Source: a virus. From it: a DNA stretch of 64,000 bases. The translations under genes and the position numbers were made by a program. The DNA lies in IMG/VR virus record IMGVR_UViG_3300045988_150084; one strand, given 5' to 3'. Shown one piece after another: positions 1,461 through 64,000 of the stretch (the first letter of the stretch is position 1; each line of letters opens with the position of its first letter). Under the pieces are notes generated by a model. The model was given only the letters and a program-made list of their open reading frames with translations, was not told where the DNA came from and did no database searches.

Positions 1461-1570
1461 GCAAAATCGGCTCGACGAGATGCAAAAATACCTCCGAATA
1501 TGATAGGGGATTTTCACGAAAAAGATACTTGCCACAGGTCTGAGTTTATGATATTCTCAAGTATAAGGAG

Positions 1571-1798
1571 GTGGCTACAATGCCGCGTAAAGTAGACTAT
1601 GATATGAAGCTCTCAAAACTCGCCGATAAGCTCAAGAAGAACGAGGAAGAGTATCAGAAACTGAAAGAGTCCTACGAAAAGACAAAAGAGGAGAAAAACC
1701 GCAAGTTCTATAAGAAGCTCCTAGACTTCATGGAGAAGAACAACATTTCCCCTGATAGTGCTATCGAGATTTTAGAGAAGAATCTGCCTACGACCTAA
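1571..1798 (+). CDS. small charged coiled-coil protein
   Basis: 75 aa, K/E-rich. Strong RBS AAGGAGGTG before the ATG. Followed by a bidirectional terminator. Confidence 0.5.
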   Translation: MATMPRKVDYDMKLSKLADKLKKNEEEYQKLKESYEKTKEEKNRKFYKKLLDFMEKNNISPDSAIEILEKNLPTT

Positions 1799-20961: not shown

Positions 20962-21136
20962 TTTGTTCTTCCTCCATCTTGAACTGAATATTAACCTTTG
21001 GCACATAGCGAGTACCGTGAGAATCAACGGCGTAAATCCTGATTGGAATACCGTGTTTTATACAGTTTTTGCAATAAGCTGTTGCTTCGTTTACTTCGTC
21101 CGTGAGCACTCCAAATTCTTCGTGGATAAACGTCAT
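20939..21136 (-). CDS. small hypothetical protein (contains the protospacer for CRISPR spacer 2)
   Basis: 65-aa ORF. Nucleotides 21054-21093 are the exact reverse complement of array spacer 2. Confidence 0.35.
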   Translation of the reverse strand: MTFIHEEFGVLTDEVNEATAYCKNCIKHGIPIRIYAVDSHGTRYVPKVNIQFKMEEEQNGRKKCS

Positions 21137-22529: not shown

Positions 22530-22572
22530 GTGAGCGTAGATGATTTTTGCTTATCGAGAAGGAGGAATTGCC

Positions 22573-36031: not shown

Positions 36032-39012
36032 TATTTATCAATCTCCTTTTTCACAAGAGTTTTTACTCCGTCTTCAATAAGAAATTCTGAATTATTATCA
36101 AGAGTTACCGAATCGAGAAGATTTATACTTCGTATCTCAGTCCCTTTTCCTTCGCTTGCGTCTGTGTCTACTGTAAATTTATATGGAGAAGCGAAACAAT
36201 AGTCATTACCAGAACGAATACTAAGAGAAAGGCTCTGCTTGGTTGCCTTAAACGTAATCTTCGTCTCGTATGTCACAGCATGATAGTCACCGCTTATCTC
36301 ATAGAACGTCGCGCCGATTGCTTCATCCCAAGAAAGGGTAACGTATTCTCCAGACATACTCTGCCGTACAAAGGCAACAGGGTTAGGCATTAACGACATC
36401 GTGAACGTCTTTGTAGTGCTTGCCGAATTGCCAGCTTGGTCATAAGCCGTGATAACGACCGTATTAATACCATCTACGCCAATACCTGTGTATCGAGTGT
36501 TGGTTGTGTGTTCGAGCTTGTCGCGGTATTTGACCGTGTATTCCTTGAAGTCTCCCTCCGTATTCTTATCCCATGTAAGACTGAACTTTGCGCCATCTTT
36601 TGTGAGAATGACGTTCTGTGGTGTGGCTGGAGGACTGTCCGTGAGGTGAAGAGTAACCGTACCTGTCTCAATCGCTTTAGAGTACAGACCGCTCTCATTT
36701 CTGACGATAACGCGGAACGCTACATTTGCATCCTGTTTTTCTTCGGCCTCATAGGAACAAACATTTGTATCTGTGAGAAGCTCCCATTCCCCATCTGGAT
36801 ATTTACGATAGAGAGAATAATACACCCCGATTTGTGTAGGAGAAGCTCCCCACGTTACTTTTGCTTTTAGCTTTGTGATAGGCGTATCGAGAATATCATC
36901 AAGAACCGTAACTCTGATACCGTCAGCTGGCAATGGCGTGCCAAGAACAGGCTTATTAAGAGAATAGTTAGGCATTGTGATTGTCGCACCGAGCGTATCG
37001 TTGTAGATAGTCGGATTGTACTGTCTTCCCTTAATGGTATATTCGCCGTCTTCTGTCTCTTGAATCTCCGTAATTCTAAAGGGCATTTCTACGAAAATAT
37101 CCTTATAGGTAATGGAAACAACATCGGACGGTTCGAGGTGTGCAGCTTGATAGCCAGTCTTGAACTCTACTTGAAGAGTACACGTTCTGTTGTAGTCTCG
37201 ATAGAAACGACCAAGACGAAGAGCTTGAGCCTGAGAAGTAACGCCCTCCAGTTCAACCTCTTTTGTAATAATCTTGTGCCGTTGTCGTTGGTCACCATAA
37301 TCATCAACAATAGCGGTTGCCGTTTGCCAGTTATTGAGAGGGTCGATAAACTTGATTTGATATTGGTTCGGACACTCATCGAGGGAAATCTGTGAGATAG
37401 AGAAATCCTTGATAGAACTGTCCGTGAACTTGTAGGATATATCAGTCTGTCTCTCGATTCGCAGATGAAGTTTATTCTTAGACAGGACAAGATAGCCGCA
37501 GAAAGAAGCCATGATATTTTGAATCCAGTCCCACATAGATTGCTGATTGTCCATGACAAGGTTCAATTCATATCTCTTGCCTGTAAGAACTGTTCCGTCA
37601 GCCATCTTGTAGGAGACTTCCGCGTCGCACCAGTCAGCCGCTTCTTTGAAACTATCCTCGTCGATATTTTCCTCTGTCAGCCAAAGACCGCCGCCGTATG
37701 TCTTGTTGAGAAGCAAGTCCCTGAGACACATAGCAGGATTTGTTGAATATACCCATTGATTAGTTCGCGTATCATATACCTTGCGTCCTTTTACAAGTGC
37801 TTCGATAGACGGATTTCCGTTTAGCTCACTACATACAGAAAAAGTAAGGTCTAGCCATGCCATATTAGGATAGCCGCCGACCGTTTCATAGTTCTCAGGT
37901 GTGTCTCCGTCGTGATACGTCATTTTAGTCTGTCCTGCAATCGTAGAAGCAACGGCTGGAACAGGCTTGCGGTAGCACGGAGAGGGCTTGCTGTTCACTA
38001 CATATCGGTCAAATGTACAATACCATGCCTTACGTTTTCGCATGTGATGCCAATGAGATTCGCTGTGTCTAGTGTTAGGGACAGAGAGGAGAACCATACC
38101 GTCTCTATAAGCCCTAATGTCCCAATCATCGCCGCCATCCTTGCGTAGTTCCGCGCGTCCCTTGAAGGTTAAGTCACCAATGAGGATGTCTCCTGCACTT
38201 CGAGAGGTATTAGCAACAGGGAACGCCTCCCATCCGTCCTGCAATCTATTGATATACGAGATGAGGGAAGACACTTCCATCTGCCAAGACCAATAACTTG
38301 CGTCCGAGCTTTGTGTATCGTCCTGATTTTTTAAGTCTAACTTTTTGAGGTTTCCGTTCCAGTACAGTTGAAGCTGTTTTCCGTCCATCTGTACCCATGC
38401 GTCCTCGAATCGTCTGTTCTGCACATAGAAGATAGTCCTGCTCTGAATATCATCTTTACTCGATGAGTCGGGGATGTTGTAAGAAGCAGCCGTGACGTTT
38501 TCGACACCTTCAATACCACCCTCGCAGAGAACAACATGCTTATGAAGTGTATTTGCATCTGCGTCTGTTTCGTGAAGCGTCTGATTGCCAGTTACTTTTC
38601 TTCTACCATAGACAACTGGGATAACACCGCCGAGAGACTGAGTTTCCTGTTCGCGGTCAAACCTCATTACACTTACGTTGCTATTCGATTGTCCTTGCTG
38701 ACCACCAAAAGCCGTCCAAATCGAGGAGAAAAGAGAAGCCCCCATGATACCAGCCGCAAGGGAAACGCCGTGAGCCGCTTGTAAGCCAAACATAGCAGGA
38801 TTGCAGAAGCCAACCGCAAAACCAACGACGGATAAAGCAACCTTACCAGCGTCCTTACCTCCACCGCCTTTACCGAATCGTTGAAGGTCAAACTTGAACG
38901 CTTTAGAGGAAAATTTCAGAAATTCGTCACCGTAAACCTCATCGCTCAAGGCATTGCGGGACGTGATAAATCTATCCTTCATTGTTCCCTCCTTAGTGAT
39001 AATTAGCTTCAA
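36031..39012 (-). CDS. central tail fibre / host-specificity (lambda J-like) protein
   Basis: 993 aa, immediately distal to the distal-tail genes. Contains FN3-like repeats (GTVTLHLTDSPPATPQNVILTK...). Confidence 0.55.
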   Translation of the reverse strand: MKLIITKEGTMKDRFITSRNALSDEVYGDEFLKFSSKAFKFDLQRFGKGGGGKDAGKVALSVVGFAVGFCNPAMFGLQAAHGVSLAAGIMGASLFSSIWTAFGGQQGQSNSNVSVMRFDREQETQSLGGVIPVVYGRRKVTGNQTLHETDADANTLHKHVVLCEGGIEGVENVTAASYNIPDSSSKDDIQSRTIFYVQNRRFEDAWVQMDGKQLQLYWNGNLKKLDLKNQDDTQSSDASYWSWQMEVSSLISYINRLQDGWEAFPVANTSRSAGDILIGDLTFKGRAELRKDGGDDWDIRAYRDGMVLLSVPNTRHSESHWHHMRKRKAWYCTFDRYVVNSKPSPCYRKPVPAVASTIAGQTKMTYHDGDTPENYETVGGYPNMAWLDLTFSVCSELNGNPSIEALVKGRKVYDTRTNQWVYSTNPAMCLRDLLLNKTYGGGLWLTEENIDEDSFKEAADWCDAEVSYKMADGTVLTGKRYELNLVMDNQQSMWDWIQNIMASFCGYLVLSKNKLHLRIERQTDISYKFTDSSIKDFSISQISLDECPNQYQIKFIDPLNNWQTATAIVDDYGDQRQRHKIITKEVELEGVTSQAQALRLGRFYRDYNRTCTLQVEFKTGYQAAHLEPSDVVSITYKDIFVEMPFRITEIQETEDGEYTIKGRQYNPTIYNDTLGATITMPNYSLNKPVLGTPLPADGIRVTVLDDILDTPITKLKAKVTWGASPTQIGVYYSLYRKYPDGEWELLTDTNVCSYEAEEKQDANVAFRVIVRNESGLYSKAIETGTVTLHLTDSPPATPQNVILTKDGAKFSLTWDKNTEGDFKEYTVKYRDKLEHTTNTRYTGIGVDGINTVVITAYDQAGNSASTTKTFTMSLMPNPVAFVRQSMSGEYVTLSWDEAIGATFYEISGDYHAVTYETKITFKATKQSLSLSIRSGNDYCFASPYKFTVDTDASEGKGTEIRSINLLDSVTLDNNSEFLIEDGVKTLVKKEIDK

Positions 39013-49939: not shown

Positions 49940-50059
49940 ATAAATCCTCCTTCGGATTGTTCTTTTGATTAGAATATGCTATACTTAATTGGTGAATTTA
50001 ATACGACAGAACGAATAAGCCTGTTGTATATTATAGGTACAAAATAACAAAAATGTTCC

Positions 50060-50088
50060 TTTACGCATCGGGGAATATTTGCTATAAT
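50060..50088 (+). promoter_or_regulatory. promoter TTTACG-17-TGcTATAAT for the plus-strand moron
   Basis: Extended -10 TGCTATAAT with a reasonable -35. Confidence 0.45.
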
Positions 50089-50126
50089 GTACCTAAGTAA
50101 ATTGTGTGTTTTTCTAGAATGGAGTG

Positions 50127-50561
50127 ATGAGGATGCAAAATAACGAGAAAGACGGCGCGTTTATTACTATGTCCGAGACTACATTTTTTTCTATACTGAC
50201 GCTAACACTATTACCCACAATTATTTCTTTAATTATTTTAATTTATTTCAAGTTGTCGCACGGTGTTCTCGTGGAGATTGACTTCGTTATAGCATTTGTT
50301 ATAGCATTTGTAGCAAGTGTACCTTTTGTTCTTGTTGGATTAATTCCTGCATTTATCGCAAAAAGTAAAGGAAGGAATTTTGGGAAATGGTGGTTGTATG
50401 GCACAATGACATTTATGATTGCCGTTATTCACTCTCTCCTCATAAAAAAGAATGATACTGTTTTAGCAGAGGACAAATCTCTCAAGAAATGCCCTTACTG
50501 CGCCGAGTATATCAAGAAAGAATCTAAGGTCTGCCGTTACTGTGGGAAGGAGCTTGAGTAA
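50127..50561 (+). CDS. membrane protein with C-terminal Zn ribbon (moron)
   Basis: Three or four TM helices. Internal AFVIAFVIAFV repeat. C-terminal CPYC-x11-CRYC. The only plus-strand gene in a 35-kb minus-strand block, and it has its own promoter. Confidence 0.55.
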   Translation: MRMQNNEKDGAFITMSETTFFSILTLTLLPTIISLIILIYFKLSHGVLVEIDFVIAFVIAFVASVPFVLVGLIPAFIAKSKGRNFGKWWLYGTMTFMIAVIHSLLIKKNDTVLAEDKSLKKCPYCAEYIKKESKVCRYCGKELE

Positions 50562-50562
50562 T

Positions 50563-51136
50563 TACTGATTCTGCATGAACTCCATGAAGTCATTTGCGTC
50601 ACCATGAGTACGCTGGACACCTTTCAGTTCATCTTGCTCGCGCTCGGAGTTCTTAGTCATACCTTCCATAAGACCTTCTAACTCAGGATAGGACAAGTTC
50701 TTGATGTCTTGTACCGTCATGCTCGTATTAGCTACGATGCTGGCAACAAGTTCATCCCAAGTTACTTGTCCTTCTTTGTCTTTTTTTTTGCTTCTCCATA
50801 TCCGCTCGTCGCGAAGAACACATCGAAGATTTTCGGAATCATAGCAACGTCAACGAAGCCCTCGATTTCCTCTCGCGTATACTTCTCACCAAAAGCAAGC
50901 ACGAGCAGTTCCATCATGGCTTCATACGGCTCATCAGAGAAATACTCCTTATCATTGTCGCTCGTAGGCGTGGACTCAACAACTTTTTGCACATCGGGAG
51001 AAATGATATTGAGAATAGCCATATCCGTTCTGAACCGTGTGATATAGTGGCGAATCTTGTTCTTGTACTTGATAAGTGCAGGGAAAATCTCGCGCTCCTT
51101 ACCATCACGGCATTTGATGAAATTATCTTTTTCCAT
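50563..51136 (-). CDS. tail assembly chaperone with programmed -1 frameshift (lambda G/GT analogue)
   Basis: The 124-aa G-like ORF (50762-51136) ends ...EAKKKTKKDK. Slippery heptamer A_AAA_AAG sits at about 50782-50790. The -1 frame stays open for about 65 more codons to the TAA at 50563-50565. Located between the major tail protein and the tape measure gene. Confidence 0.55.
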
Positions 51137-51238
51137 ATTGTCATAACCTTTCGTAATAGATTTCAGTTTTTCGTCAATGAGGGTTTCCCCTCAAAGACAA
51201 GAAAAGAGAAGAGATAGTAACCTCTCCTCCATCATTCA

Positions 51239-52057
51239 TTAGTGACCTGCGTCTGTGCCTGTGGAACCCGTGCTAGACGAACCCGCCGAGGCGGTCGGAG
51301 CAGTAACATCCTTGTTGTCGGACTCTGCCTCCGTGACATCCTCCGTAGCGAAGCTCCAGAACTTGCCGTCCTTACGCTCAGGGTCAACAATGGAGAATTT
51401 CAGCTCAGGAGCAAAAGCGTTCTTGTGCTTGAAATCCAGCTTGAGAGAGCCGTCGGAACGCGTCTTGTAAAGGATAACGTTCATGCGGACGATACGACCG
51501 TTTTTCTGCTTCATCGGCTTCGACTTGAAGTAAATCGTGGCATAGCCAGGAACGGAAACCGTCTGCACATCAAGACCAACAGCACCAGTATCGGTCGTAT
51601 ATGCGTAGGTAGCTTTAAGCTCCTTGCCAGCATACGTCGCATCAACCTTGCTGTCCGTCACCTTCACCACGTTACCCTCATCGTCAGCGACAACGAGCGT
51701 AGCAAGGTCAGCCGTATCAGCGTGTGCCAGCTTAATAGCACCGCCAGTACCGACCGTGACAGCTTCATCAAGAGCGAAGACAACAACACCCTTCTCCTTG
51801 GCCTTTACGCCCTGAGTGAGTGCGACCGTCTGCGTGTCCATCGAAGCGTTCGTAAACGTGACGGAACCGCTCTTCTCAGTCTGATACGAGAACAGGGACG
51901 TATTGGACTCGCCGCCGAAAATGTCCTCCATCTTGGACGAGAACTCGAACGTAGCGTTCTGGAGGTGGATGTAACCAACCTTGCCAGTCTCACCGACTAC
52001 AATAGCCTTACCAGTACCCTCAACAAAGAAGGACTCGTTCTTAGTGATTGGATTCAA
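51239..52057 (-). CDS. major tail protein
   Basis: 272 aa, beta-rich. Position between the head-tail genes and the chaperone. Confidence 0.55.
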   Translation of the reverse strand: MNPITKNESFFVEGTGKAIVVGETGKVGYIHLQNATFEFSSKMEDIFGGESNTSLFSYQTEKSGSVTFTNASMDTQTVALTQGVKAKEKGVVVFALDEAVTVGTGGAIKLAHADTADLATLVVADDEGNVVKVTDSKVDATYAGKELKATYAYTTDTGAVGLDVQTVSVPGYATIYFKSKPMKQKNGRIVRMNVILYKTRSDGSLKLDFKHKNAFAPELKFSIVDPERKDGKFWSFATEDVTEAESDNKDVTAPTASAGSSSTGSTGTDAGH

Positions 52058-52074
52058 ATTAATTCTCCTTTTCT

Positions 52075-52473
52075 TTATGCAAAAATTAACGGACGATAAC
52101 GCTGTGCATATTTATATACGCCCTTCGTGTCAGATGGAAGGTTATAGCACGAACCAACGAAAAAATCCTCCTCGCGCAGCTCTTCCGTAATGATTCGCTT
52201 CATAGCTTTCAAATCTGCCCTCGATTTAGCATAATAATCTACGCACAAAAAACCTCTCAGCACATAAATATTATCCGTTTCAGTTGCGGACGAGAAATAT
52301 ATGCTTACGAAGTTTACGTTATCAACTGTGGCGTAACTAAGCGGCGTTAATTCCCTGCGGATTCGCTGATTAATTTCGCCCTCGGTTTTTGGATTTCCCA
52401 GCAGTTTTATGAGGTCTTTATTCTTTTTGAGCTTGCGGTAAACATCATCAAGGACTCCCATATCATCTGTCAT
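52075..52473 (-). CDS. tail terminator / head-tail joining protein
   Basis: 132-aa ORF. Confidence 0.4.
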   Translation of the reverse strand: MTDDMGVLDDVYRKLKKNKDLIKLLGNPKTEGEINQRIRRELTPLSYATVDNVNFVSIYFSSATETDNIYVLRGFLCVDYYAKSRADLKAMKRIITEELREEDFFVGSCYNLPSDTKGVYKYAQRYRPLIFA

Positions 52474-53105
52474 AGAGAAATTCTCACCTTCTTCATTTCA
52501 CTCTTAAAATATCTAGCGACACATTCGACAAAAACGTTGTGAATCTCTTCTTCCATATCGGAGAGGAGATTATTGTCCAGCAGCGCCCTTTTTAGAACAT
52601 GATAAGCTGGAGATGGTGTGTAGAAATAGCCATCAATTTTCAGTCTGTGGTTGCGTCCTCTGAGGTTTATATGGCGTGAAGACCACCAATCCTCAAGGTT
52701 TACCCACTCAGCACTACCGCTAGAGGAATATTCGTTTCCGTCAAGGTCTTTATATACGCCCTTCGGTCTACCCATGATAGCCAAGCCATCCGCAAGACGG
52801 TTTTTGTTGAAATTGGAAGAAGCCAAGTAATTGGACAGGTATGGATTCTCATCCGATTTGTCCATTAGGCTGCCCTTTCCGTACTCAGCAATCCACGCCT
52901 TCTGTCCCCACGCTTCTACGATATAGCTCACAACTGCATCCGTTGGATAATATTGCCCAGTAGATAAGATGTGTGCTTCACCGTCAATCGTGTTCATCTT
53001 CTGCCACTCTGTACGAACGTTATCTTTTGCCGCTTTGATATATTTTGAGACAACCCTACGGACACCTTCACCAAGGTTTTTCCCTAGGTCAAATCTTCTA
53101 CTCAT
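52470..53105 (-). CDS. head-tail connector protein
   Basis: 211-aa ORF. Confidence 0.4.
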   Translation of the reverse strand: MSRRFDLGKNLGEGVRRVVSKYIKAAKDNVRTEWQKMNTIDGEAHILSTGQYYPTDAVVSYIVEAWGQKAWIAEYGKGSLMDKSDENPYLSNYLASSNFNKNRLADGLAIMGRPKGVYKDLDGNEYSSSGSAEWVNLEDWWSSRHINLRGRNHRLKIDGYFYTPSPAYHVLKRALLDNNLLSDMEEEIHNVFVECVARYFKSEMKKVRISL

Positions 53106-53677
53106 AGGTTACGGTTATCGTCGCTTGTCTGAACCGCAAGGAGTCCAGCAAACTTCGTGGTGTCAATAGCGTCTACACAATAGTTCTTGCTGTCGAGTGT
53201 GATACGGTCAAGTAACTTAATATCGCAAATCGGAACGCGGAACTCTTTTGTCGTGCTAGGAAGAAGCCCTGCATCCATCATTCGCATATTGGCATTTACT
53301 GTCACATGATTGCATGGCGTGTCGAGAACATGAACCAGTTCCGTGCCAATCAAATCACCGTCTTCGTTATACTTCTCTTCGCCCTTCCTTGTTACGGAGA
53401 TAGCGCCGTTGCACATATACACCGTAGCTTGCACCGACTCGGCAGAGGGACGTAATGCAACAACGATGAAATTTTTCTTAGTTCCCTTTATCGTGCAGGA
53501 AAACAGGTCACCATTTTGGAGCTCCGTGTTCTCTTGAAGGAGTCCAGTAAAAACAAAGTTGCTCTTGAAGTTAGAAGCATTACTTTTACCGACTCGTGTG
53601 AGAACAATCTTTTCTGGGTCTTTACCGACAATATCAATCGGCTGTTTGAACCTATTAAAAAGCGCGAACATCGGCAT
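53102..53677 (-). CDS. head-tail adaptor/closure protein
   Basis: 191-aa ORF. Confidence 0.4.
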   Translation of the reverse strand: MPMFALFNRFKQPIDIVGKDPEKIVLTRVGKSNASNFKSNFVFTGLLQENTELQNGDLFSCTIKGTKKNFIVVALRPSAESVQATVYMCNGAISVTRKGEEKYNEDGDLIGTELVHVLDTPCNHVTVNANMRMMDAGLLPSTTKEFRVPICDIKLLDRITLDSKNYCVDAIDTTKFAGLLAVQTSDDNRNL

Positions 53678-54233
53678 TTAACCCCCTCAGAAGCATCTTG
53701 ATGTCAGAAGTGAAGAAACTATCGTCTGTCATCATAATGTTAAAGTCAAGAGATGTTAATTGCTTTGCTCCAGCGAAACTCTGTGCCTGTCTGATATTGC
53801 AAGCAAGCATAGCCGTTGCCGTCTTGAGACGTTTAGGATACTCGTCGAAACCACTCTTGTACTTGATTTCAAGTTTAGACGGTCTGGAGTGGAAGAGCAT
53901 CATGTTAATATCGAAAGAGCCGATGTAGGTGAAGTACCCATCATTCTCAGTATCAAGCTCAATATCATTCACATCGAGAGCATTTGTACTCCTGCCGAAC
54001 AACGTATCAGAGATACAGGTAACTGACTCGATTTCAATGATAGGAGAATGACTGAGCTTTCCTCGATTAGTCTTAGATAGCTTTACCCTGTCAACGTATT
54101 CCTTTGGAACAAACGACCGACCAAGAAAGCTGTTGATAAGGTCTGTTGCCATCGCTACATCTGAGGAATTAACTCCATCAATCGTAGAGCAATAAACAGG
54201 AATTTCTTCTTCTGTGAGGTACATATCACTCAT
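53655..54233 (-). CDS. head-tail connector protein
   Basis: 192-aa ORF. Confidence 0.4.
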   Translation of the reverse strand: MSDMYLTEEEIPVYCSTIDGVNSSDVAMATDLINSFLGRSFVPKEYVDRVKLSKTNRGKLSHSPIIEIESVTCISDTLFGRSTNALDVNDIELDTENDGYFTYIGSFDINMMLFHSRPSKLEIKYKSGFDEYPKRLKTATAMLACNIRQAQSFAGAKQLTSLDFNIMMTDDSFFTSDIKMLLRGLNADVRAF

Positions 54234-54420
54234 TGGAAATCAGCCCCATCACCTTAACCTCTGCAAACTCCTCTGGATTGACAAGAACATACCCATCGTG
54301 AGCGATAACCGCGCGGTGTTTGAGAATAATGACATCCTCATTCGTTCTTACCTTGTAGACAACATTCTTTGGAGTATCCTTCGGTGCAACCTTCGTCGTA
54401 GTGGTTTTTCTTCGTGGCAT
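54226..54420 (-). CDS. small hypothetical protein
   Basis: 64-aa ORF. Confidence 0.3.
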   Translation of the reverse strand: MPRRKTTTTKVAPKDTPKNVVYKVRTNEDVIILKHRAVIAHDGYVLVNPEEFAEVKVMGLISNE

Positions 54421-54504
54421 TGAATCAACTCCTTTAGAAGCCGCCGCTGACGCTTTTTGTTTATTTGTTGGCTTACCAAGCGACTTATTACGAAAGGTTA
54501 GAGA

Positions 54505-55563
54505 TTAGTCGTGACTTGCCCCAGCACCAGCCGTAGCGTTCGTGGACGGACTCTCATCTGTCTTGTTGACCGTGATAACATCCGTACCAACAGGAACCGT
54601 AGCCTCCGTCTCGCCGTCAATCGTGAGCAGGAGGTGACCGTAGTTACCGCCGCGCACGATGAACGTATCGAACAGAACCGCGATATAACGCTGTGCAAGG
54701 TCTTTCTCCGTGCCAAGCTGATACATACGCGGAACATCACTAGCCACGTACTGACGCTCAAGGAGGTTCTCATCGACAATAGCAATCTTACCGACAGGGC
54801 AGTAAATATCCGTCACAATCGGCAGAACGCCAGCGACCGTCATAATGCCAGTCACCTTAATGCCAGGAAGAACCTCGACATCGTAGGTCTTGACCTTATC
54901 CTTCGCGTTAATCTCCTGAGACTCAAGTTTTGCCTTATCGAGCGGATTCATGTAGATAGCAGTCGGCGTAACCTTGTACTTCTTGTTGTACATAAGCATA
55001 GCCACACCGTTGCGGATAGCCTCCGTCAGACGCGCGTCCTTAGCAATCGTACCAGTCTTCTTAATCTGCGTGATGATGGAGCAATACTCGTGAGATGTGG
55101 AGTCCATGAGGTCTTTCGCACCGCCAGTCCACACAGCGCGGTCTTGTGCATCGAGCATATCAGAGACAACTTCCGAAAGGTCTTGCGCTTGAAGGTCACC
55201 GAAAAGCCCCTGCTGCTGCGTAACCTCACGGTCAAACTTGCCGAACGTGATACCATCAACCTCTGCGCGAATCAGAGCCGAACGCTCAACACGCTGGACT
55301 TGCGTATCAAGAGCATGGTCGATTGCACGCGGGTCAATGAACTTCTCCTTGGTGTCATGTGCGAGCTTCTCGAAGTAGCGCGTCGGATGGCCTGTTGCAG
55401 CCTTGGCCTTAACGCGCTGAAGGAGCGTACCCCGCTTGCGCGTCTTATCCATAATCTGCGACTCGAAAACAGGGACATACAGTGCGCCTGTGCCGATATA
55501 GTCAGCCGTCGCGTTCGCGAAACTCATAAAGCGGCTCTCGCCGTCAAAAAGTCGAATACTCAA
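54505..55563 (-). CDS. major capsid protein
   Basis: 352 aa downstream of the scaffold/protease. TTG start with RBS GAGGAAGG. Confidence 0.6.
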   Translation of the reverse strand: MSIRLFDGESRFMSFANATADYIGTGALYVPVFESQIMDKTRKRGTLLQRVKAKAATGHPTRYFEKLAHDTKEKFIDPRAIDHALDTQVQRVERSALIRAEVDGITFGKFDREVTQQQGLFGDLQAQDLSEVVSDMLDAQDRAVWTGGAKDLMDSTSHEYCSIITQIKKTGTIAKDARLTEAIRNGVAMLMYNKKYKVTPTAIYMNPLDKAKLESQEINAKDKVKTYDVEVLPGIKVTGIMTVAGVLPIVTDIYCPVGKIAIVDENLLERQYVASDVPRMYQLGTEKDLAQRYIAVLFDTFIVRGGNYGHLLLTIDGETEATVPVGTDVITVNKTDESPSTNATAGAGASHD

Positions 55564-55579
55564 ATTTTACCTTCCTCTC

Positions 55580-56602
55580 TTATGCCTGAAACTCGTCTTG
55601 ATGCTCATTCCAGAGCTGGATTTTCTTCGCCCATTTCTGCTCTGCCGTCAGCTTATCGTTATCGTCGATAGCCTTGGAAAGCTCCATAGCCGTCTTCTTC
55701 TCACCGTCGAAACGCGGAAGGGATGCAAAGTCAACCTTCGTCTTGCGCTCTGGCTCTTTCTCCTCTGCCTTCGTCTCAACCTTCTTCTCGGCAAGTGTCT
55801 GTGCCATAGCGTCCTTGATACCAGCCGTGATAGCATCCTGCATAGCCGCAAAATCCATCTTCGGCTCTTCCTGCTTCGGCTCAGCCTTGTCTTCAACCTT
55901 GGACAGCTTTTCAACCGTCTCCGTCAGCGTCTTCATAGATGCTTCAAGAGCGGAAAACTTAGCGTCGAAAGCCTTTTTCTGCTCATCGAGAGCGTTCTTC
56001 GTTTCCTCGTTCAATTCTTCATTCTCCTTATTCATCATGGAACACATAAACTTAGTATTCTGAAATGCCGCCTTGTTCTTGTAGAGGATTGCAACCCCTG
56101 TGAAGTGCGCTCCCAGCCCTGTAAGAGTCTGCGCTTTATCATCCCTCATCACACCGTCAAAGTAAACTTCGACAGAGAACCCAAGAGAATCTTTTGCACT
56201 CTCAATCGTGTCACACACATCGGGAAAATCATTCTTCCACAAATGACCAGCAACAGCAATTTCATTACCGTTCAAATGAGCTTCATCAACCACGCCGACC
56301 TTAAATCGAGGAGCATGGTCTTTCAGATTATGTGCAGGGTCGCTAAAGAAATCATCACTCCATTGGACGTTTACGCCGCTACCAGCAAGGGACTCCACAT
56401 CAATATTTTCACTACTGATAATGGTTTTATATCCCATAATGCCGCCGCATGGTGTACCGTCCGTGGGAGTATCAACATACCCAGCAACGCCGCTGAAATT
56501 CAATACGTCAGGATTGTTCTCGTCCTGCATCGTACTGAAACTAGAGAAATTAAGCGTTACGCTCTTTCCCTCTGTCTTCTTCTGCTCGTTTCTTTTCGCC
56601 AT
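55580..56602 (-). CDS. prohead protease / scaffolding protein
   Basis: 340 aa, between portal and capsid. C-terminal coiled coil (EELNEETKNALDEQKKAFDAKFSALEASMKTLTETVEKL). Confidence 0.45.
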   Translation of the reverse strand: MAKRNEQKKTEGKSVTLNFSSFSTMQDENNPDVLNFSGVAGYVDTPTDGTPCGGIMGYKTIISSENIDVESLAGSGVNVQWSDDFFSDPAHNLKDHAPRFKVGVVDEAHLNGNEIAVAGHLWKNDFPDVCDTIESAKDSLGFSVEVYFDGVMRDDKAQTLTGLGAHFTGVAILYKNKAAFQNTKFMCSMMNKENEELNEETKNALDEQKKAFDAKFSALEASMKTLTETVEKLSKVEDKAEPKQEEPKMDFAAMQDAITAGIKDAMAQTLAEKKVETKAEEKEPERKTKVDFASLPRFDGEKKTAMELSKAIDDNDKLTAEQKWAKKIQLWNEHQDEFQA

Positions 56603-57905
56603 CAGTCTTCTTTTTCACATCCTCTTTTTGGTCTTTGCCTAAACCATTAAATCCACCAGTCTGCACAGCATATTTTTTATTCAATACCGATTTCATTTCT
56701 GCCTGAGTCATGTCGTTATACGGACTGTCAATATGCGGCATACCGATAGCATTTCTATACTCTGCAAAGGTAATACCGTTGTTGTTCCATTGTTCCGTGA
56801 GCATCGTCTGCTTCTGTTGCTTCTGCGTCAGCGTGTCTTCAAAGACAAACTCGAACTTCAAATAATCGCCCATACCTAAACGACCAATGATTTTCTTGTT
56901 AATCTCATCGGCAAGCAGTAAGCAATACGGACGAACCGCTTCATTAAGCATGGACTCATTCTGCTCTTCCACAGTAGAACGGTCTGTATTGCTGCCCTGA
57001 CCAAGTTTCTTAGGGTCAATACCAAAGGCAAGAGCAATCTCCGTGATTAACTCTTTCTGCCATTCGAGGAACAGCCCTTCGTCACCGTCAGCACCAAGAT
57101 GAAGTGCTTGAGCACCCTTTGTACCGCCGATAATTGCCTGTTCGCCGCGTCCCTGTACCTCTTCACGCCAATACTTTCTGAACGCATCGAGGTCTGCCTG
57201 TGAGACGTTCTCTCCAAGGTCAAGGGCATATTTAGGAATAGCATTGTCGGTCTGTGTAGAAGCGTATTCTTGAGCACTACTTAACGCATTGATATGCTGG
57301 AAAGCCGCTTCGATAGGAGATAAACCGTATGGCGTATCGACGGTCTTATTATGCTGCAAATAAAGAACATCCTTGTCATACAGATACGTTCTATTCGCTC
57401 CTACGACCTGACAGAATCGGTAAAAATCTGGATTTGTGAAAAACCCTGTGACATATTCAAGAGCGAAACCGTTAATCGGATATAACTTCATTGGTCTGCG
57501 AATGTCTCCAGTAAAGACAATCTCGGCCGCTCCATTATCTCCAATCAGGGTTTCATTGATAACCTGTCCCCAGAAAGACTCGTAGGTGTCTGTCTCGTTA
57601 GGGTGCAGGATAATATTCTCCAATGCTTTGATAGCAGCACCATAGGTACGTTTATCTCCTGCATTGGTAGGGACAATCCTCCAATTCTGCGCTAATACTC
57701 CGTCCCGAATAAGGGAAATAGCACGGTGAGGAATTGCCATTCGAGAAAAGTTCCGCAAGCTCCGTTCGTTTACCTTGATAAGCGAATCTTTTGGAGTAAA
57801 GTTAGGCAAAGAAATAATCGTCGTGGCAGACTGCCTTTGAAGGTGTCCGTCAGACGGTGTTTTAATGCCAAGGTGGAAAATCTTCCCGAAAGCTCTTATC
57901 TCCAT
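56550..57905 (-). CDS. portal protein
   Basis: 451 aa immediately downstream of the large terminase. Confidence 0.6.
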   Translation of the reverse strand: MEIRAFGKIFHLGIKTPSDGHLQRQSATTIISLPNFTPKDSLIKVNERSLRNFSRMAIPHRAISLIRDGVLAQNWRIVPTNAGDKRTYGAAIKALENIILHPNETDTYESFWGQVINETLIGDNGAAEIVFTGDIRRPMKLYPINGFALEYVTGFFTNPDFYRFCQVVGANRTYLYDKDVLYLQHNKTVDTPYGLSPIEAAFQHINALSSAQEYASTQTDNAIPKYALDLGENVSQADLDAFRKYWREEVQGRGEQAIIGGTKGAQALHLGADGDEGLFLEWQKELITEIALAFGIDPKKLGQGSNTDRSTVEEQNESMLNEAVRPYCLLLADEINKKIIGRLGMGDYLKFEFVFEDTLTQKQQKQTMLTEQWNNNGITFAEYRNAIGMPHIDSPYNDMTQAEMKSVLNKKYAVQTGGFNGLGKDQKEDVKKKTDGEKKRAEEDRGKERNA

Positions 57906-59446
57906 TTTGTGAAAATCCCTCCCATCGGTGTTGGTTTCATGCGCGAGGATAGTCCTCCAAAAACAAGGCGGTGAGACATATCAGGGAAAGCAGCAGAACA
58001 AATCATGTTAAGTGCATCCATTCCATCATCACTACCCTTTGGAAATCGTAAAAATTCGTTGACAAGTACAGTCTGGTCTTTGCGGAACTTGATGTATTTG
58101 TTCTTGATTCTCGGAATCATACCGCGAAGACGTAACTGCTTTTCAACCTTGCTGTTGTACTCATTAATTGGAATCTGAATACCAGCGTTCAGACCTCTCT
58201 TAGCAACTTCATCCTTGAACATTGCTTGGAACTGAACTGTCTCAATCGTCACCGAAACAAGGTGGCTCTGATATTTCATAGAACCCGCAATAATGAGGTC
58301 AATGAGCCTGTCTGGCTTAAATCTTCCCATAGTCACATCAAGTACATAGAGGAACCCGTTCTCATCCTTACCAGCGAATATGATTGCTGCTCGGTCTGAT
58401 TTTGCCTTGCCAAGAGAAGGGTCAACAGCGCCATAAACTTCCTTGATTTCTGGAAGTTCATAGTAGTAATCAAACCACTCAGGAAGGAACTCCGCGTTCG
58501 CAGGGTCAATCGGTTCATTCTGATACTCACTTGCAAAAGAACTACTATCGGAAACCCGAAGTTCCATCATATTCTCGTAATAATCTGGAGAACTCTCAGG
58601 CCAAAGAGATTCGACACCTTTAAGCATCTCATCTCTGTGCTTCTGATAGAATTGATAGGCATCTTCGCCAGCCTTAGGGTTGTGCTCGTCCGTGAGAATT
58701 TGTTCCCAATCATCCCACAACGGAGAATCCGAAAAGTGCTGTACCGCTTGGTATCTCTTTCTGTCCCACATTGAGAACGCAGGAGCAGTTAAGAGCTTTT
58801 GCAGTAATGACTCATAGTGAAGCACCGTCCCAATATAGATATAGTCGCTTGTTGGTGTACCTACTGGGATAAGGGCTTTCATAAACCAGTTGAACAACTT
58901 TTTTCGTTGCGCTTCTGTCTCTACGTTTTCATCGTTCTCCAAATCATCGATGATGATTAACTCAGGGCGAATCGAGCCGAACTTATTACCGCGAAGTTTC
59001 TGTCCAGCACCACGGCCATAAACCTGTACACGGTTAGAAGTAATAATCTTATCTTGCGCCCATTTCTCTTCCGAAACAAGGTCACCAAAATCGGTTTTGA
59101 TAAGGTCATTTTCTTCAAGTTCTGTCTTTATCGCCGAGATGAAAGAACGCGCTTGGTCTAACGTATCAGAAACGAGCAAAATGTTCCTTTTGTACTTGTA
59201 AACTATGCACCAGATAATCAGCAAAAACGAGATAACCTGCGACTTACCATGTCCACGCGGAGCGGCTCGAACATAGAAGTTTTTTCGTCTTTTTCTCCTC
59301 AGAATCATGTCCTCTGCGGACTTGAAAATTTCCTTGTGTAAAGGGGAAAATGCACAAGAAAATACCGAGGGGAAATAGGTAAGAGCGAACTTTTCAAGGG
59401 AAGTAGCACAGTCTTTCATGCGCTGTCCCGCGTCCTCTCTATCCAT
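57896..59446 (-). CDS. terL: terminase large subunit
   Basis: 516 aa. Walker A-like AAPRGHGKS. C-terminal nuclease-like domain. Position upstream of the portal. Confidence 0.75.
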   Translation of the reverse strand: MDREDAGQRMKDCATSLEKFALTYFPSVFSCAFSPLHKEIFKSAEDMILRRKRRKNFYVRAAPRGHGKSQVISFLLIIWCIVYKYKRNILLVSDTLDQARSFISAIKTELEENDLIKTDFGDLVSEEKWAQDKIITSNRVQVYGRGAGQKLRGNKFGSIRPELIIIDDLENDENVETEAQRKKLFNWFMKALIPVGTPTSDYIYIGTVLHYESLLQKLLTAPAFSMWDRKRYQAVQHFSDSPLWDDWEQILTDEHNPKAGEDAYQFYQKHRDEMLKGVESLWPESSPDYYENMMELRVSDSSSFASEYQNEPIDPANAEFLPEWFDYYYELPEIKEVYGAVDPSLGKAKSDRAAIIFAGKDENGFLYVLDVTMGRFKPDRLIDLIIAGSMKYQSHLVSVTIETVQFQAMFKDEVAKRGLNAGIQIPINEYNSKVEKQLRLRGMIPRIKNKYIKFRKDQTVLVNEFLRFPKGSDDGMDALNMICSAAFPDMSHRLVFGGLSSRMKPTPMGGIFTKWR

Positions 59447-59627
59447 TACCGCCTCGGCTGACGTAGTTTCCTCGATTGCCTTTGCTAACTCATCAAAATA
59501 TCTTTTCTGCTTTATAGAATCACCCCTTTTAGTGCCTTGTCCCTGTCAGCACCTTGGACACTCCCAAATTGCATGTCTTCCTCGTGCCTCAGCCTCGTGC
59601 CTACACTCATAAGCTAGGACTTTTGTT

Positions 59628-60182
59628 TTAGATGGCTCTGATTGTCTCGAACATATCCGAACGTCGAAGCTCTTCAAAGACCTCGGCTTTAACTTGCGGG
59701 TATCTGTCTAGGATTTTCAAAAAGACTTCAAGAACTTTTCGCACCTTCTGGATGCCTAGCTGTTCTTTCTGAATTCTTGAAACGCTCTCGTTCAAATCTT
59801 CGAGAAACTTGCACGAATGGAGATAGGCGTTTGAGATGGAGGAAATCTCAGACAGCTTCTCTTCATCGTCTTTGAGGTTATCGAGTATTCTGCCGAGCTT
59901 GTTTGTATGCCTTACAAGACGGTTGCGGACACTCCATGCCTCGGAAAGAGCATTAAAGCGATTAACCGCTGTTGCGACATCATTCCTGCCTACGTCCGTT
60001 AAGCCATGCGCGGCGCAGTATCTTGAAATAGTCATTTTGTTCAACGGCTGCTCGCCAGCTGGGAGGGATTCTCTGTTGATTACATCGGCTACTTCTTCAC
60101 AGGTAAGCGTCTTGCGGAGTTCAAGAACCTTCCTACCCAACCCGAGTTCATCAATCCTGTACTTCATGTAATCACCTCTCAA
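59628..60182 (-). CDS. terS: terminase small subunit (HTH)
   Basis: 184 aa. N-terminal HTH-like segment (LTCEEVADVINRE). Immediately upstream of terL. Confidence 0.5.
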   Translation of the reverse strand: MRGDYMKYRIDELGLGRKVLELRKTLTCEEVADVINRESLPAGEQPLNKMTISRYCAAHGLTDVGRNDVATAVNRFNALSEAWSVRNRLVRHTNKLGRILDNLKDDEEKLSEISSISNAYLHSCKFLEDLNESVSRIQKEQLGIQKVRKVLEVFLKILDRYPQVKAEVFEELRRSDMFETIRAI

Positions 60183-60190
60183 TTTGTCCT

Positions 60191-60225
60191 CTCATATATT
60201 ATCTATGGTGGCTTTTCAAGTAAAA
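60191..60225 (-). promoter_or_regulatory. conserved promoter-like motif, copy 1 (TTTTACTTGAAAAGCCACCATAGATAATATATGAG on the minus strand)
   Basis: Lies 10-45 nt upstream of the terS start. Near-identical to copy 2 at 61794-61828. Confidence 0.4.
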
Positions 60226-60544
60226 AAGGGCTGAAATTCCAAAAAAAATCATTTTTAATCAAATTTTTAACTAAAATAGCTATAAGATATATCTTTTATA
60301 AAGAACCTGAGAGTAAGAACAGGAAGTTGACCTCGGATGCGACGAGGACATGAAGCGATGATTTTGTGACTATATTTTCGTGCTCCTTGTGACGCTCCAG
60401 AGCAAAGATGTCATTTTTCGCGTTTTTTACGATAAAAAGTACCCTCGATTTTGCCACGCGATAACTTATACCTGTGAAAGATTCGAGAGGGATTTCCTTC
60501 GTAAATTTACGAAGGAAATCCGCTTAAAATCGATTTTACGTTAA

Positions 60545-60832
60545 TTACCTACCCCCTTTTCCCTTGTTGAGAGTCTTCATAGCGGCAGAACGAGCTTTTT
60601 TTGTGCTGTCAGAAATACTATTTTTCCCACGTCGGAATGTAAGTAGCTTCTTTGGAACTCGATATTCTACTGCCCAGATATGTCGATTGGTCTTGAATAC
60701 CTGATAGCGTGGATAAATCTTGTCCAGCTTCGTAATCATCTTCGTGTCGCTTGTCCAAATCCTCATCTCGTCAGGCTCTCGCTCAAACTCAATAACGGTT
60801 TCTTGTTCTTCTTTTGCTGTGTACTCTTTCAT
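60545..60832 (-). CDS. hypothetical protein
   Basis: Start set at MKEYTAKEEQ, which has RBS AAGGAG. The upstream part of the ORF-track ORF has no RBS and is treated as noncoding. Confidence 0.4.
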   Translation of the reverse strand: MKEYTAKEEQETVIEFEREPDEMRIWTSDTKMITKLDKIYPRYQVFKTNRHIWAVEYRVPKKLLTFRRGKNSISDSTKKARSAAMKTLNKGKGGR

Positions 60833-61342
60833 GTAAACTCCTTTCAGCGTTCGGCTAAAGCCGAATTGTCTTTTCCAGACAATCAAATGTTTGCTAATCG
60901 AGGAAATAGGGTTGTGACTGCCTACAAGCGGCGTAGCCGCATACCTAGCCATATAGATATATTTATACCCATTGGTCGTGCGAAGGGGCTTAGAGCGAAC
61001 GTCAGGCGGTCGGTTTCTATCGACGGCGTGGCTTCGTGATACGCCCGAGTGCGTGGTGAGCGGAACACACACTCTTGGTTCGTCTGCTTGATATATATAA
61101 ATACATCTACACAGATTGAAACATGAATGTTTCTTTTGCTAATCTCTTACAGAGAGTTTTACTAATCGGAGAAGTTGGTCGGGGGAAGGCTTGTCAAAGC
61201 CGACACCGATATTATTTATTTAAGATATACGTTAGTATAGATTAAATAAATAATACATTTTATTAACACCCTTGTATGTATATATATTAATTAGATGGGG
61301 TAATTTTTCCCCCTAATTGTGCTGCCTGTCAGATTTGCCCCC

Positions 61343-61645
61343 TCAGATGGTGATTTTAAGTCGATACAGAGACGGGACTCCCCTCTGGCGCGATGGTGCA
61401 TATTCAATCATTCCCTTCTCGATTAGTTCCCTTCTTGCTCTATGAATCGTTTTTCTGGCCATTCCAGTATCTTGAACCGCTAGGCGGTCTGTGTAACAGA
61501 ACTCTCCTTCTCTGCCCTTCCAAGACAAAATGAGAAACAGTTTCAATGCCGATGGCGAGGTTTCCTTGATTCTCTTGATAAATTCGTAGTTCACTTCTTC
61601 CTCCTGTGATTCTTCTTCCTGATTCGCGACCATTTCAGCCGACAT
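61343..61645 (-). CDS. winged-HTH DNA-binding protein
   Basis: 100 aa. Acidic N-terminus. HTH-like segment MARKTIHRARRELIEKGMIEY. Confidence 0.45.
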   Translation of the reverse strand: MSAEMVANQEEESQEEEVNYEFIKRIKETSPSALKLFLILSWKGREGEFCYTDRLAVQDTGMARKTIHRARRELIEKGMIEYAPSRQRGVPSLYRLKITI

Positions 61646-61776
61646 TTCACCTTTGCGCCGCTATACACTTTCTTCCGATGGGGACATTCATAGACACCTT
61701 CCCAGTAGTATAACCCCTGACAGTACATCAAAGCATAGTTCCTCGATAAGCCGATTTTGTTTCCTAGTATCTTCAT
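61591..61776 (-). CDS. small basic protein
   Basis: 61 aa. Directly downstream of promoter-motif copy 2. Overlaps the next ORF by 55 nt in another frame. Confidence 0.3.
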   Translation of the reverse strand: MKILGNKIGLSRNYALMYCQGLYYWEGVYECPHRKKVYSGAKVKCRLKWSRIRKKNHRRKK

Positions 61777-61793
61777 GGCGTAAAAATTCCCCC

Positions 61794-61828
61794 TTCATAT
61801 ATTATCCGCGGTGACTTTTCAAGTAAAA
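61794..61828 (-). promoter_or_regulatory. conserved promoter-like motif, copy 2 (TTTTACTTGAAAAGTCACCGCGGATAATATATGAAG)
   Basis: Shares TTTTACTTGAAAAG-CACC---GATAATATATGA with copy 1. Confidence 0.4.
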
Positions 61829-63278
61829 ACACGCTCAAATACATTAAAGTTACATTAGAATTATATTATAGAAAGCTATAAGAGTTAACATGATGTAATG
61901 CTACCCAGTAACACTCAATCATATTGCCTTGACATCCCTTTTGCCATGCGCCCTCGGCGGCTCTGAAATTGTCCTCCCTGAGTGATACTTGACAATAGCG
62001 CGTAACACCGTGAGTAACGCCAAAAACTGCTGCCTATGTACACCCTCAACAGACACCATCTTCCTCGATTTGTAAACTAAAAAACGCAAAGTGCTTGACG
62101 ATGTATACGAGAATAAAGCGCCCCCTAGCTGGATTAAGTGTTTTTTGCAGGTTTGCCGAAAATTGCCCCATCTAGCCCCAATCCTTTAGTTAGTTGAAGA
62201 GCCTGTGAAGCCTTATACCACAAGGGCTGGCGGCACTTCCACGTTGCATAATTGATATTATAAAACGATTGAGAATAATTTCCAATAACGTGTATTAATC
62301 AAGTTGTCTGACAATTTCTTATTGATAGATTTTCTCATTTACTTTGACCTTTTGTCCTATATCATTTCTGCATATTATGCGCGCGTATTATGCTATTTTT
62401 GTATGTACGCCTCCAGTGGACACGTTACTAAAATATACCCCTCTAGGGTATACCAAAGTCAAACTTAATTTTACTTCTATTTTATCCAATTCAATTTAGC
62501 TAAATCGTTTTTATCCTTAGTAGCATCAAGGCTTTTCGCATATCCAGTCCCATTTAGTAATATATCTTGTTACATAATCATACCCGATATCATTAAGTCT
62601 TATTCAATCATACCTAGTAATACCCTTGCATATCGGAGAAGTGTGTTTTAGCAAAGTAAAGTAAATAGTATTCATACTTGATTGCTATGTTTTAGTAAAG
62701 TAAAGAGACAGGAAAATAGTCCTATTTAATTCTCTCAACCCTTGTAATTACTAGCTTCATCGCCCTTGTACTCTCTCGATGCACATTTGTTTTGCCTTAT
62801 CAAATTATTATTGTCTGACAATTTATTTTTCTTGTTGCCCGCCAGCCCTTGTAATTACTAGCTTCATCACTGTTTTCTACCTTTTTCTAATAAAACAAAA
62901 TATCCATGCTCATATATCAACGCCCCGCCAGCCCACTAACTACGCCGCCTGATAGCCTTTTCGATTAGCAAAAAATCATCACTTTCTCTCATATAAAAAT
63001 ACACGCGAGGAAATCCCTTATTGATAATATTTCTCAAAGGAATTAAAAATAAAAAGACTTGCACGTTATTCGTCGCTTGCTATAACAAAGTTGCAATCGG
63101 GAACGGCCCGAAAGGGAAATGAACCGAAAGCAATCCATCCGACGCCCGCGGGGGGGCCGAACAAGACGCCCCGCTTAAAAGAGAAAGAAAGGAGATGAAA
63201 AGGCCGCTATCAGGCCCAGCACGCCCGCCGCAGTCAACTTCTATTAATAGTTCTTTGAAAATTTCATATTGCAGGGGG

Positions 63279-63463
63279 GTTTCCGTCCCCTTACGGGGAT
63301 TTTGTTTTTCAACGAAGAAGAGTTTTATTCGACCGTCGCGCCCGCTGATGAAAGTTTCCGTCCCCTTACGGGGATTTTGTTTTTCAACTAAACGAAGCAA
63401 CAGCTTATTGCAAAAACTGTATAAAACAGTTTCCGTCCCCTTACGGGGATTTTGTTTTTCAAC
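63279..63463 (+). CRISPR. CRISPR-like mini-array: three 35-bp repeats and two 40-bp spacers
   Basis: Repeats GTTTCCGTCCCCTTACGGGGATTTTGTTTTTCAAC at 63279-63313, 63354-63388 and 63429-63463 (all identical, partly palindromic). Spacers at 63314-63353 and 63389-63428. An AT-rich leader-like stretch lies at 63241-63278. No cas genes in the window. Confidence 0.8.
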
Positions 63464-63584
63464 ACGCTCGTCGGGAATAGAGTTACGCGAGTACCCTGCT
63501 ATATGGATTAATATTGACCCGTAGACTCCGAGAACAGGGGACGCGGCCGGCGAGGGCCTCTAACGTGACAGGTTAGTAGGTACG

Positions 63585-63839
63585 GTGAACCACACTCAAG
63601 CCGGTTTTAAGAAGTACCGAAGGCCTTCTTGCGTCTCACACGACAACCGACTCGGGGAGACAGGCCGGAGGGGCGTTAAGTTGCGCCCGCTTGTTGGCAG
63701 CACGGTATTACTTTATGTAGTATCGCCGGAGGTCGAGCAGTTCAATAAGGCCGAGTATGACGTCAAGGCGGGCCGCGTTGATAATCTCGGCGTGTTCTGT
63801 CAGCAGTTCATGCTGGCCGGTATGAAGGAGGTGAAGTAA
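63585..63839 (+). CDS. hypothetical protein (GTG start) in the high-GC region
   Basis: 84-aa ORF. Codon usage is GC-rich, unlike the phage. Confidence 0.3.
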   Translation: MNHTQAGFKKYRRPSCVSHDNRLGETGRRGVKLRPLVGSTVLLYVVSPEVEQFNKAEYDVKAGRVDNLGVFCQQFMLAGMKEVK

Positions 63840-63841
63840 AG

Positions 63842-64000
63842 ATGTTCTGGAAAGCGTTCCACTCCTACTACTACACGGAGGACGAGGAAGAACGTGCCGA
63901 ACTGTTGCAGGACTTCCCCGCCGCCGTGCCGATGACGGAAGAAGAGTTTTATTCGACCGTCGTGCCCGCTGATGAAATCATGGTGACGGGGAACTACCTT
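63842..64000 (+). CDS. hypothetical protein, partial (contains the near-match to spacer 1)
   Basis: RBS GGAGGTG before the ATG. Runs off the window end. Nucleotides 63938-63977 match spacer 1 at 39/40. Confidence 0.4.
   Translation, partial: MFWKAFHSYYYTEDEEERAELLQDFPAAVPMTEEEFYSTVVPADEIMVTGNYL

Follow-up and report, generated by a model that had tools for sequence, protein, structure and literature searches.

How can a phage carry a CRISPR array whose spacers match its own genome? Mini-arrays found in phages are mostly interpreted as tools for fighting competing phages. In the stretch of virus DNA analysed here (IMG/VR record IMGVR_UViG_3300045988_150084; 64,000 nucleotides, hereafter the window), the first-pass annotation had described three identical 35-bp repeats and two 40-bp spacers, had matched both spacers to the window itself and had pictured a host array beside a prophage that it targets. 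The coordinates of all repeats and spacers proved correct, and the case combines a self-matching array, an apparently antisense placement in an early leader and a position at the epicentre of host type III-A targeting. Sequence comparisons with relatives and host arrays point to Selenomonas-like gut bacteria as the host of the phage, and the array is most probably captured host memory.

The locus has the geometry of a CRISPR array (direct repeats of 25–40 nt, unique spacers of similar length), with three repeats of 35 nt and two spacers of 40 nt. The repeat GTTTCCGTCCCCTTACGGGGATTTTGTTTTTCAAC occurs in exactly three copies in the whole window, all at 63279–63463, and none is expected in shuffled sequence (100 shuffles). 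Rfam returned a weak CRISPR-DR18 match on the minus strand (35 bits vs a gathering score of 50). Among 185,579 GTDB species genomes, the exact repeat was found only in one Selenomonas sp. MAG, where a 32-repeat array lies directly upstream of cas1, cas2, cas10/csm1, csm2, csm3 and csm4 (all calls above NCBIfam cut-offs). Ten more host contigs with the identical repeat were obtained, two through a metagenome scan and eight through a protein-database search that picked up spurious ORFs translated across arrays. Seven of these ten have type III-A cas genes beside the array; of the other three, L014 and L114 are without a cas call, and in L013 a 9.6-kb inter-array stretch lies outside the annotation. 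Contig L013 (Ga0256404_1010891) has a pair of arrays that share repeat and leader and are separated by about 9.6 kb. The suspected CRISPR nature of the unit is borne out by this identity, 35/35, to arrays beside type III-A cas genes.

Spacers in the host arrays are 35–43 nt long, vs 40 nt in the phage array. Wherever the end of a host array was read out, a host leader, (A/C)GTCCCTCCGAAAAGCCTTGTCATTCC (longer form (A/C)GTCCCTCCGAAAAGCC...), adjoined it; the side of this leader always corresponds to window position 63464 and beyond, while the mutated terminal repeat of the MAG adjoins cas1. Because the host leader side corresponds to the right of the phage array, the crRNA-sense strand is the minus strand of the window; the repeat check proposed earlier thus yields type III-A with crRNA-sense on minus. 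On that strand the repeat ends 3' in ACGGAAAC, directly after the hairpin, which is the 8-mer crRNA 5' tag of S. thermophilus III-A (PMC9297841). The host leader is absent next to the phage array, and beyond the repeats the window flanks have no homology to host array flanks or leader.

At least five other metagenome assemblies, independent of each other, drawn from three or more studies and made with different assemblers, contain this array between identical flanks; among them are four short contigs (L016–L019) from other samples and studies, which have the three-repeat form with identical junctions. Because these junctions recur in independent assemblies, the array is not an assembly artefact, which disposes of the chimeric contig that the first-pass annotation had named as a refutation; the phage-carried type III-A mini-array is real. 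L001/L015 has a two-repeat form with spacer 2 only and is otherwise 100% identical to the window. The single repeat–spacer unit that sets it apart reflects a very recent loss or gain, or an assembly collapse. In IMG/VR, no match was found to the exact repeat, spacer 1 or spacer 2, and no CRISPR-like array occurs in 79 IMG/VR terminase relatives. Also, no match was returned by megablast of 56000–64000 against GenBank phages, or by blastn of 63200–63560 against GenBank phages and PLSDB plasmids.

The picture of a host array beside a prophage does not hold, as the window is a circularly permuted phage genome without host DNA. Contig L001 is 100% identical to window 47896–64000, continues for 3,731 nt and then runs into window 1–1790; because it joins position 64000 to position 1, the window represents 64 kb of a circular or circularly permuted phage genome of ~67.7 kb. 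The window encodes a terminase (57896–59446, minus), portal, major capsid, tail tube and a 2,909-aa tape measure, together with PolIII-alpha, a primase-helicase, a Rad52-type protein, a ParM-like protein, NrdD/NrdG, a tyrosine recombinase and five tRNAs (Table 1). Its large ORFs encode PolIII-alpha, tail proteins and a methylase, with no cas gene among them, and the 3.7 kb absent from the window hold only small ORFs without family matches. The lack of cas genes noted for the window therefore holds for the whole ~67.7-kb genome. Two of the explanations first offered for the array, that it is carried by the mobile element itself and that it is orphan or inactive, fit these data; a CreTA-type or Cas-autoregulatory module does not, as there is no cas locus and the matches are full-length and lie inside ORFs, not in a promoter.

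Table 1. Position of the array, its targets and other features in the window (strand as plus or minus of the window).
Feature	Position	Strand	Remarks
Repeat 1 (35 nt)	63279–63313	minus	crRNA-sense strand = GTTGAAAAACAAAATCCCCGTAAGGGGACGGAAAC; exact copy
Spacer 1 (40 nt)	63314–63353	minus	plus strand = sense of 62-aa early ORF
Repeat 2 (35 nt)	63354–63388	minus	exact copy
Spacer 2 (40 nt)	63389–63428	minus	plus strand = sense of 65-aa ORF, replication module
Repeat 3 (35 nt)	63429–63463	minus	exact copy; leader-proximal end by analogy with host arrays
Spacer 1 protospacer	63938–63977	plus	within 62-aa early ORF (start at 63842, cut off by the window end)
Spacer 2 protospacer	21054–21093	minus	inside 65-aa ORF 20939–21136 (minus)
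Promoter-like element, early operon	63059–63086	plus	TTGCAC 63059–63064, 16 nt, TATAAC 63081–63086; in all relatives
Early leader RNA, 5' part	63095–63278	plus	last ~40 nt = protospacer region of host spacers
Early leader, 3' part	63464–63740	plus	conserved multi-helix structured RNA
84-aa ORF	63585–63839	plus	fusion remnant after 624-bp deletion in first early gene
Small tyrosine recombinase	579–1460	plus	
Rad52-family single-strand annealing protein	20248–20961	minus	PF04098 on 237-aa product; adjoins 65-aa ORF
ParM/ALP-like segregation protein	22540–23484	plus	
PolIII-alpha	24615–27683	minus	

The array lies within the phage's own early leader. Ten contigs (L001–L010) have a terminase identical to that of the window, and the repeat is absent from nine of them (L002–L010). 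Because all nine align to the window both left and right of the array, the flanks are the phage's own sequence; at the array site these relatives have a native segment of ~95 nt, e.g. GGAAGTATCCTCTTTGAAGGGTTTGTATTGCCCGCGATGTTATTTCCGTC... The array had been placed in DNA of about 60% GC, unlike the phage around it. Its surroundings measured 54–57% GC and, far from being foreign, constitute the phage family's own structured leader, which is conserved in array-less relatives. The leader is ~650 nt long and follows a promoter-like element that a simple promoter scan skipped, its last base being C. Early transcription would start near 63093, and the 5'-most host spacers (L112_sp9 and L111_sp22) start at or just past the TATAAC box, near this predicted start. 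In the 3' part of the leader, RNAalifold indicated compensatory changes in 20 of 58 predicted pairs, with many G-U pairs, several of them invariant. The structure fits a plus-strand RNA, because invariant G-U pairs would be C-A on the other strand. This structured RNA is also the principal target of host type III-A spacers. No Rfam family was found for the leader, and a ToxIN-like RNA–toxin pair made of the leader and the 192-aa gene was ruled out, as neither tandem repeats nor a family match were present.

In the array-less relatives L002–L010, the native segment (e.g. L006, reverse complement, ...GAAATCATTTCCGTCCGG...) contains TTTCCGTC(C), which equals repeat positions 2–10 and is nearly the anti-tag; within the replaced segment it belongs to a conserved hairpin stem. 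The identity could be fortuitous, or it could mark an attachment core or an inbuilt signal of 'self'.

Further downstream, 624 bp of the relative (L006:5157–5780) are missing from the window, with a junction at 63734–63740 and a 7-nt microhomology. The deleted stretch is most of the 192-aa first early gene, which is kept in most relatives and is the gene most often matched by host spacers. This deletion is a second escape-type lesion in the same phage lineage.

Host memory of this phage family was surveyed by mining the 11 host loci, which gave 296 unique spacers; these were searched against the whole window, and against what was available of the relatives, namely ~21 kb surrounding the terminase plus a few further loci, at a match cut-off of E < 5e-4. 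Matches to the phage family were found for 28 of the 296, of which 13 lie in the ~650-nt leader, five in the first early gene (192 aa), seven in other early-operon genes and three elsewhere. The orientation is that of RNA targeting, with the crRNA complementary to the leader RNA or mRNA, in 26 of the 28. Mapping at the peptide level confirmed the pattern and added further matches in the replication module, beside the target of spacer 2. The 5' part of the leader is matched by MAG spacer 20, L114_sp5 and L115_sp15, and the ~95-nt segment replaced in the window is itself matched by L013_sp10 and L112_sp5. On the left, L111_sp20 spans the array junction and MAG spacer 20 stops 4 nt short of it; on the right, L111_sp17 equals window 63473–63509 (37/37), beginning 10 nt past the junction, and L013_sp15 matches 63516–63545. 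This distribution agrees with experimental type III work, in which protective spacers fell in the early region with a strong strand bias and phages escaped via deletion (PMC7515739). With 13 of the 28 phage-matching host spacers in ~1% of the genome and deletion-type escapes in the phage, the locus records a dense arms race. The oldest spacer of the L111 array, L111_sp1, equals window 38921–38961 (41/41) in the tail-gene region, in an orientation that cannot pair with mRNA.

The spacers of the phage array also match members of this family, including the carrier. Spacer 1 matches its protospacer on the same strand at 39/40, with a mismatch at 63963 (C in the spacer, T in the target), and matches the array-less relative L006:4916–4955 at 40/40; the 62-aa ORF that contains the target is the first intact gene 3' of the early leader. 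Spacer 2 is the reverse complement of its protospacer at 40/40, and the same score was found in all ten related loci L020–L029. The 65-aa ORF hit by spacer 2 has the gene of an HTH replication protein on one side and the Rad52-like gene on the other. One sample yielded an array-less relative (L006 and L022) in which both spacers find a 40/40 match. Pfam and PADLOC returned nothing for both target ORFs and the 192-aa gene. At both targets the plus strand of the array is the coding strand; therefore, a crRNA from the minus strand would be antisense to mRNA, as type III needs. Type III complexes read a flank complementary to the crRNA tag as 'self'. The 3' flank of the spacer 1 protospacer, TCATGGTG, agrees with the anti-tag GTTTCCGT at one of eight positions, and that of the spacer 2 protospacer, CGGTATTC, likewise at one of eight, so that both would be expected to count as non-self. 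The matches and their abrupt end at the repeat boundaries thus stand as first described, and represent true spacer–protospacer relations.

Only a host array can have supplied three perfect host repeats. An off-target neo-array built by Cas1–Cas2 was ruled out, as its product would be a duplicated native pseudo-repeat rather than three exact copies of the host repeat. We consider it on balance probable that the phage array is a captured fragment of a host array that lies antisense in the early leader, probably yields no crRNA and possibly serves as a 'self' decoy. A host immunised several times against the phage would have recombined with it, most likely through the ~40-nt homology between array spacers and early-leader protospacers, which a Rad52-type protein could anneal; the Rad52-family protein of the phage is a candidate catalyst of such short-homology recombination. 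About 95 nt of leader would thereby have been swapped for repeat–spacer 1–repeat–spacer 2–repeat, either by replacement of the DNA between two protospacers or by Campbell-type integration at one spacer and excision at another. Because the orientation of a functional type III spacer is set by the direction of target transcription, capture by this route would leave the array antisense to the early transcript. Insertion site, orientation and content (two spacers typical of host memory) all appear to fit such a capture, and spacer–repeat units from arrays can enter phage genomes (bioRxiv 10.1101/2020.10.09.333658). Against it, the capture needs four consecutive anti-phage spacers in the correct order, and the only host array with spacers of both flank types (L111) has the order opposite to that requirement. 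As to a donor, neither spacer 1 nor spacer 2 was found among the 296 host spacers, none of which abuts exactly on either array junction.

To the right of the array, a consensus-based scan of 1.4 kb found no promoter-like site on the minus strand, and all genes in this stretch run in the opposite direction. A promoter inside the repeat (TTGAAA as -35) was ruled out, as no -10 box lies at the proper distance. The promoter-like element, the strand bias of host spacers in the non-coding leader and the covarying, G-U-rich structure together suggest that the plus strand is transcribed, from the conserved early promoter. Given the absent host leader, the lack of a minus-strand promoter-like site and the apparent transcription of the plus strand, a crRNA is probably not made from the phage array, and the perfect self-match would therefore not be lethal. 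Orientation and the missing leader thus offer a simple resolution of the self-targeting paradox.

In the plus-strand RNA of the array, the copy of each of the two protospacers is directly followed by GUUUCCGU, which is perfectly complementary to the tag ACGGAAAC. On this strand, every repeat folds into a hairpin of -9.6 kcal/mol followed by the U-tract UUUUGUUUUU, and each is scored as an intrinsic terminator. For an early operon, three such hairpins in the leader should be costly unless there is read-through or a downstream promoter. Among the possible consequences of the captured fragment, the best supported is the loss of the heavily targeted segment, then a 'self' flag on the protospacer ending at 63278, then attenuation of transcription into the downstream targets, and last a decoy effect, in which the plus-strand RNA would bind host complexes with spacers 1 and 2. 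Such a decoy would be useful solely in hosts that hold spacers 1 and 2.

An alternative that we regard as rather unlikely is a mini-array used in competition, whose minus-strand transcript would engage host Cas6 and Csm and kill superinfecting relatives, its own targets being silent while the phage is carried. Orphan arrays of one or two spacers, without cas genes, with host-identical repeats and with spacers matching close relatives have been described in viruses (Faure et al., 2019; SPV1/SPV2 in Medvedeva et al., 2019; reviewed in PMC11656645), and the phage array resembles them in all these respects, including the related-virus matches that the published description gives (PMC11656645). The relative in a single sample that matches both spacers at 40/40, where the carrier has one mismatch in protospacer 1, would suit a weapon of this kind, as would the antisense orientation of both crRNAs to mRNAs that type III requires; a functional spacer orientation and 40/40 matches in array-less relatives are equally expected under competition. 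The tyrosine recombinase and the ParM-like gene make a carried state plausible. However, unlike the viral mini-arrays, the phage array matches its own carrier (40/40 and 39/40) with non-self flanks, and the mismatch-tolerant type III machinery would target the phage itself on induction or lytic growth. Nor was a host leader or a promoter-like site found on the crRNA strand, a further difference from the viral mini-arrays; the array lies downstream of, and antisense to, the early promoter. In addition, it is of the RNA-targeting type III-A and replaces a host-targeted segment, and insertion at a hot spot of host spacers with deletion of that segment is outside the predictions of competition.

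Less likely again, in our estimate, although plausible and testable, is that the array acts as an RNA-based anti-CRISPR. Memorised protospacers, each with a perfect anti-tag, would be transcribed from the strongest early promoter of the phage, so that Csm–crRNA complexes would read them as 'self' and no Cas10 signalling would follow. The antisense repeats may also pair with host pre-crRNA and block its processing by Cas6. Self/non-self discrimination by tag–anti-tag pairing in type III systems was reportedly established by Marraffini and Sontheimer 2010. Complementarity between tag and flank is used to avoid signalling (PMC9297841). In form, this plus-strand RNA equals what antisense transcription of a host array would give, the natural 'self' substrate; in the present case it would be made by the phage, beside genuine non-self targets. 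Solitary repeat units (Racrs) are likewise phage copies of host repeats with possible interference at the RNA level; they are sense-strand repeat mimics that bind Cas proteins (PMC10651486), whereas the present array appears to be antisense, comprises three repeats with spacers and would act by anti-tag 'self' mimicry. The array raises the hypothesis that such mimicry can be turned against type III systems and, if this is true, recombination with host arrays would be a general route by which host memory is turned into decoys.

Quite improbable is an origin of the kind seen with PhiAP1.1, where the repeat would serve as an attachment or homology site for integration into the host array, which is thereby disrupted, and the spacers would have been gained via excision at another repeat. 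Spacer–protospacer recombination and the capture of spacer–repeat units by phages were reportedly described by Varble et al. 2019. As in those cases and PhiAP1.1, units of the array would have entered the phage by recombination with a host array, and the number of units varies. There is precedent for spacer–repeat units at attP after induction (bioRxiv 10.1101/2020.10.09.333658), the phage encodes a tyrosine recombinase, and the TTTCCGTC(C) of the array-less relatives places 8–9 nt of the repeat 5' end at the array site. An 8-mer common to a 95-nt segment and a 35-nt repeat has, however, a chance expectation of ~0.08 by a rough calculation. Also, ~45 nt of native sequence are missing on each side of that core and repeat 3 is complete, so the junctions, unlike those of PhiAP1.1, misfit a crossover at an att core. 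The recombinase gene is ~4.8 kb distant, and none of the examined host contigs has phage DNA joined to the host array or cas genes. The Varble and PhiAP1.1 cases concern type II-A systems of staphylococci and streptococci in the laboratory, whereas the array described here belongs to a natural, stable lineage present in several human gut samples. It offers a concrete, testable case of array-to-phage transfer in the wild.

We think it very unlikely that the spacers were acquired in situ, with host Cas1–Cas2 using a phage repeat captured earlier and drawing prespacers from abundant phage DNA. Self-derived spacers are what this would predict, and the identity of L001, with spacer 2 only, to the window with its two spacers would mean a change of one unit over a very short time. 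Against this, a leader that could direct integration is absent, the position of the extra spacer is leader-distal by comparison with host arrays, so that a loss in L001 fits better than a gain, spacer 1 is closer to the allele of a relative than to that of its own carrier, and a single-repeat version was not seen. Two last options, an assembly chimera between a phage contig and reads of a host array and a repeat of non-CRISPR kind (terminator, REP element), are hardly credible: the terminator-like score of the plus-strand repeat speaks for the latter, whereas the repeat is confined to one site in the window and is identical to that of cas-associated arrays, and identical junctions in six or more independent assemblies from different assemblers, with phage sequence on both flanks, speak against the former.

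Other features of the genome bear on the lifestyle of the phage. Host flanks are absent from all contigs, and the ParM/ALP-like protein, the tyrosine recombinase, the Rad52-type protein and PolIII-alpha co-occur; the phage may be maintained as a plasmid, i.e. as a phage-plasmid. The late (minus) and early (plus) modules are divided by an AT-rich, ORF-poor stretch of ~1.4 kb (61700–63060), which contains direct repeats (TTGTCTGACAATTT at 62304 and 62811; a 26-mer at 62736 and 62843) together with a 14-nt inverted repeat, perfect in both arms, at 62220 and 62839. All of these repeats are candidate operator, origin or packaging sites. Further, the replication module of the phage was found on L020 (ERZ28569052 scaffold_103, 100,552 bp), a contig ~1.5 genome lengths long; concatemeric assembly might account for this length, as might a larger relative or integration of the phage.
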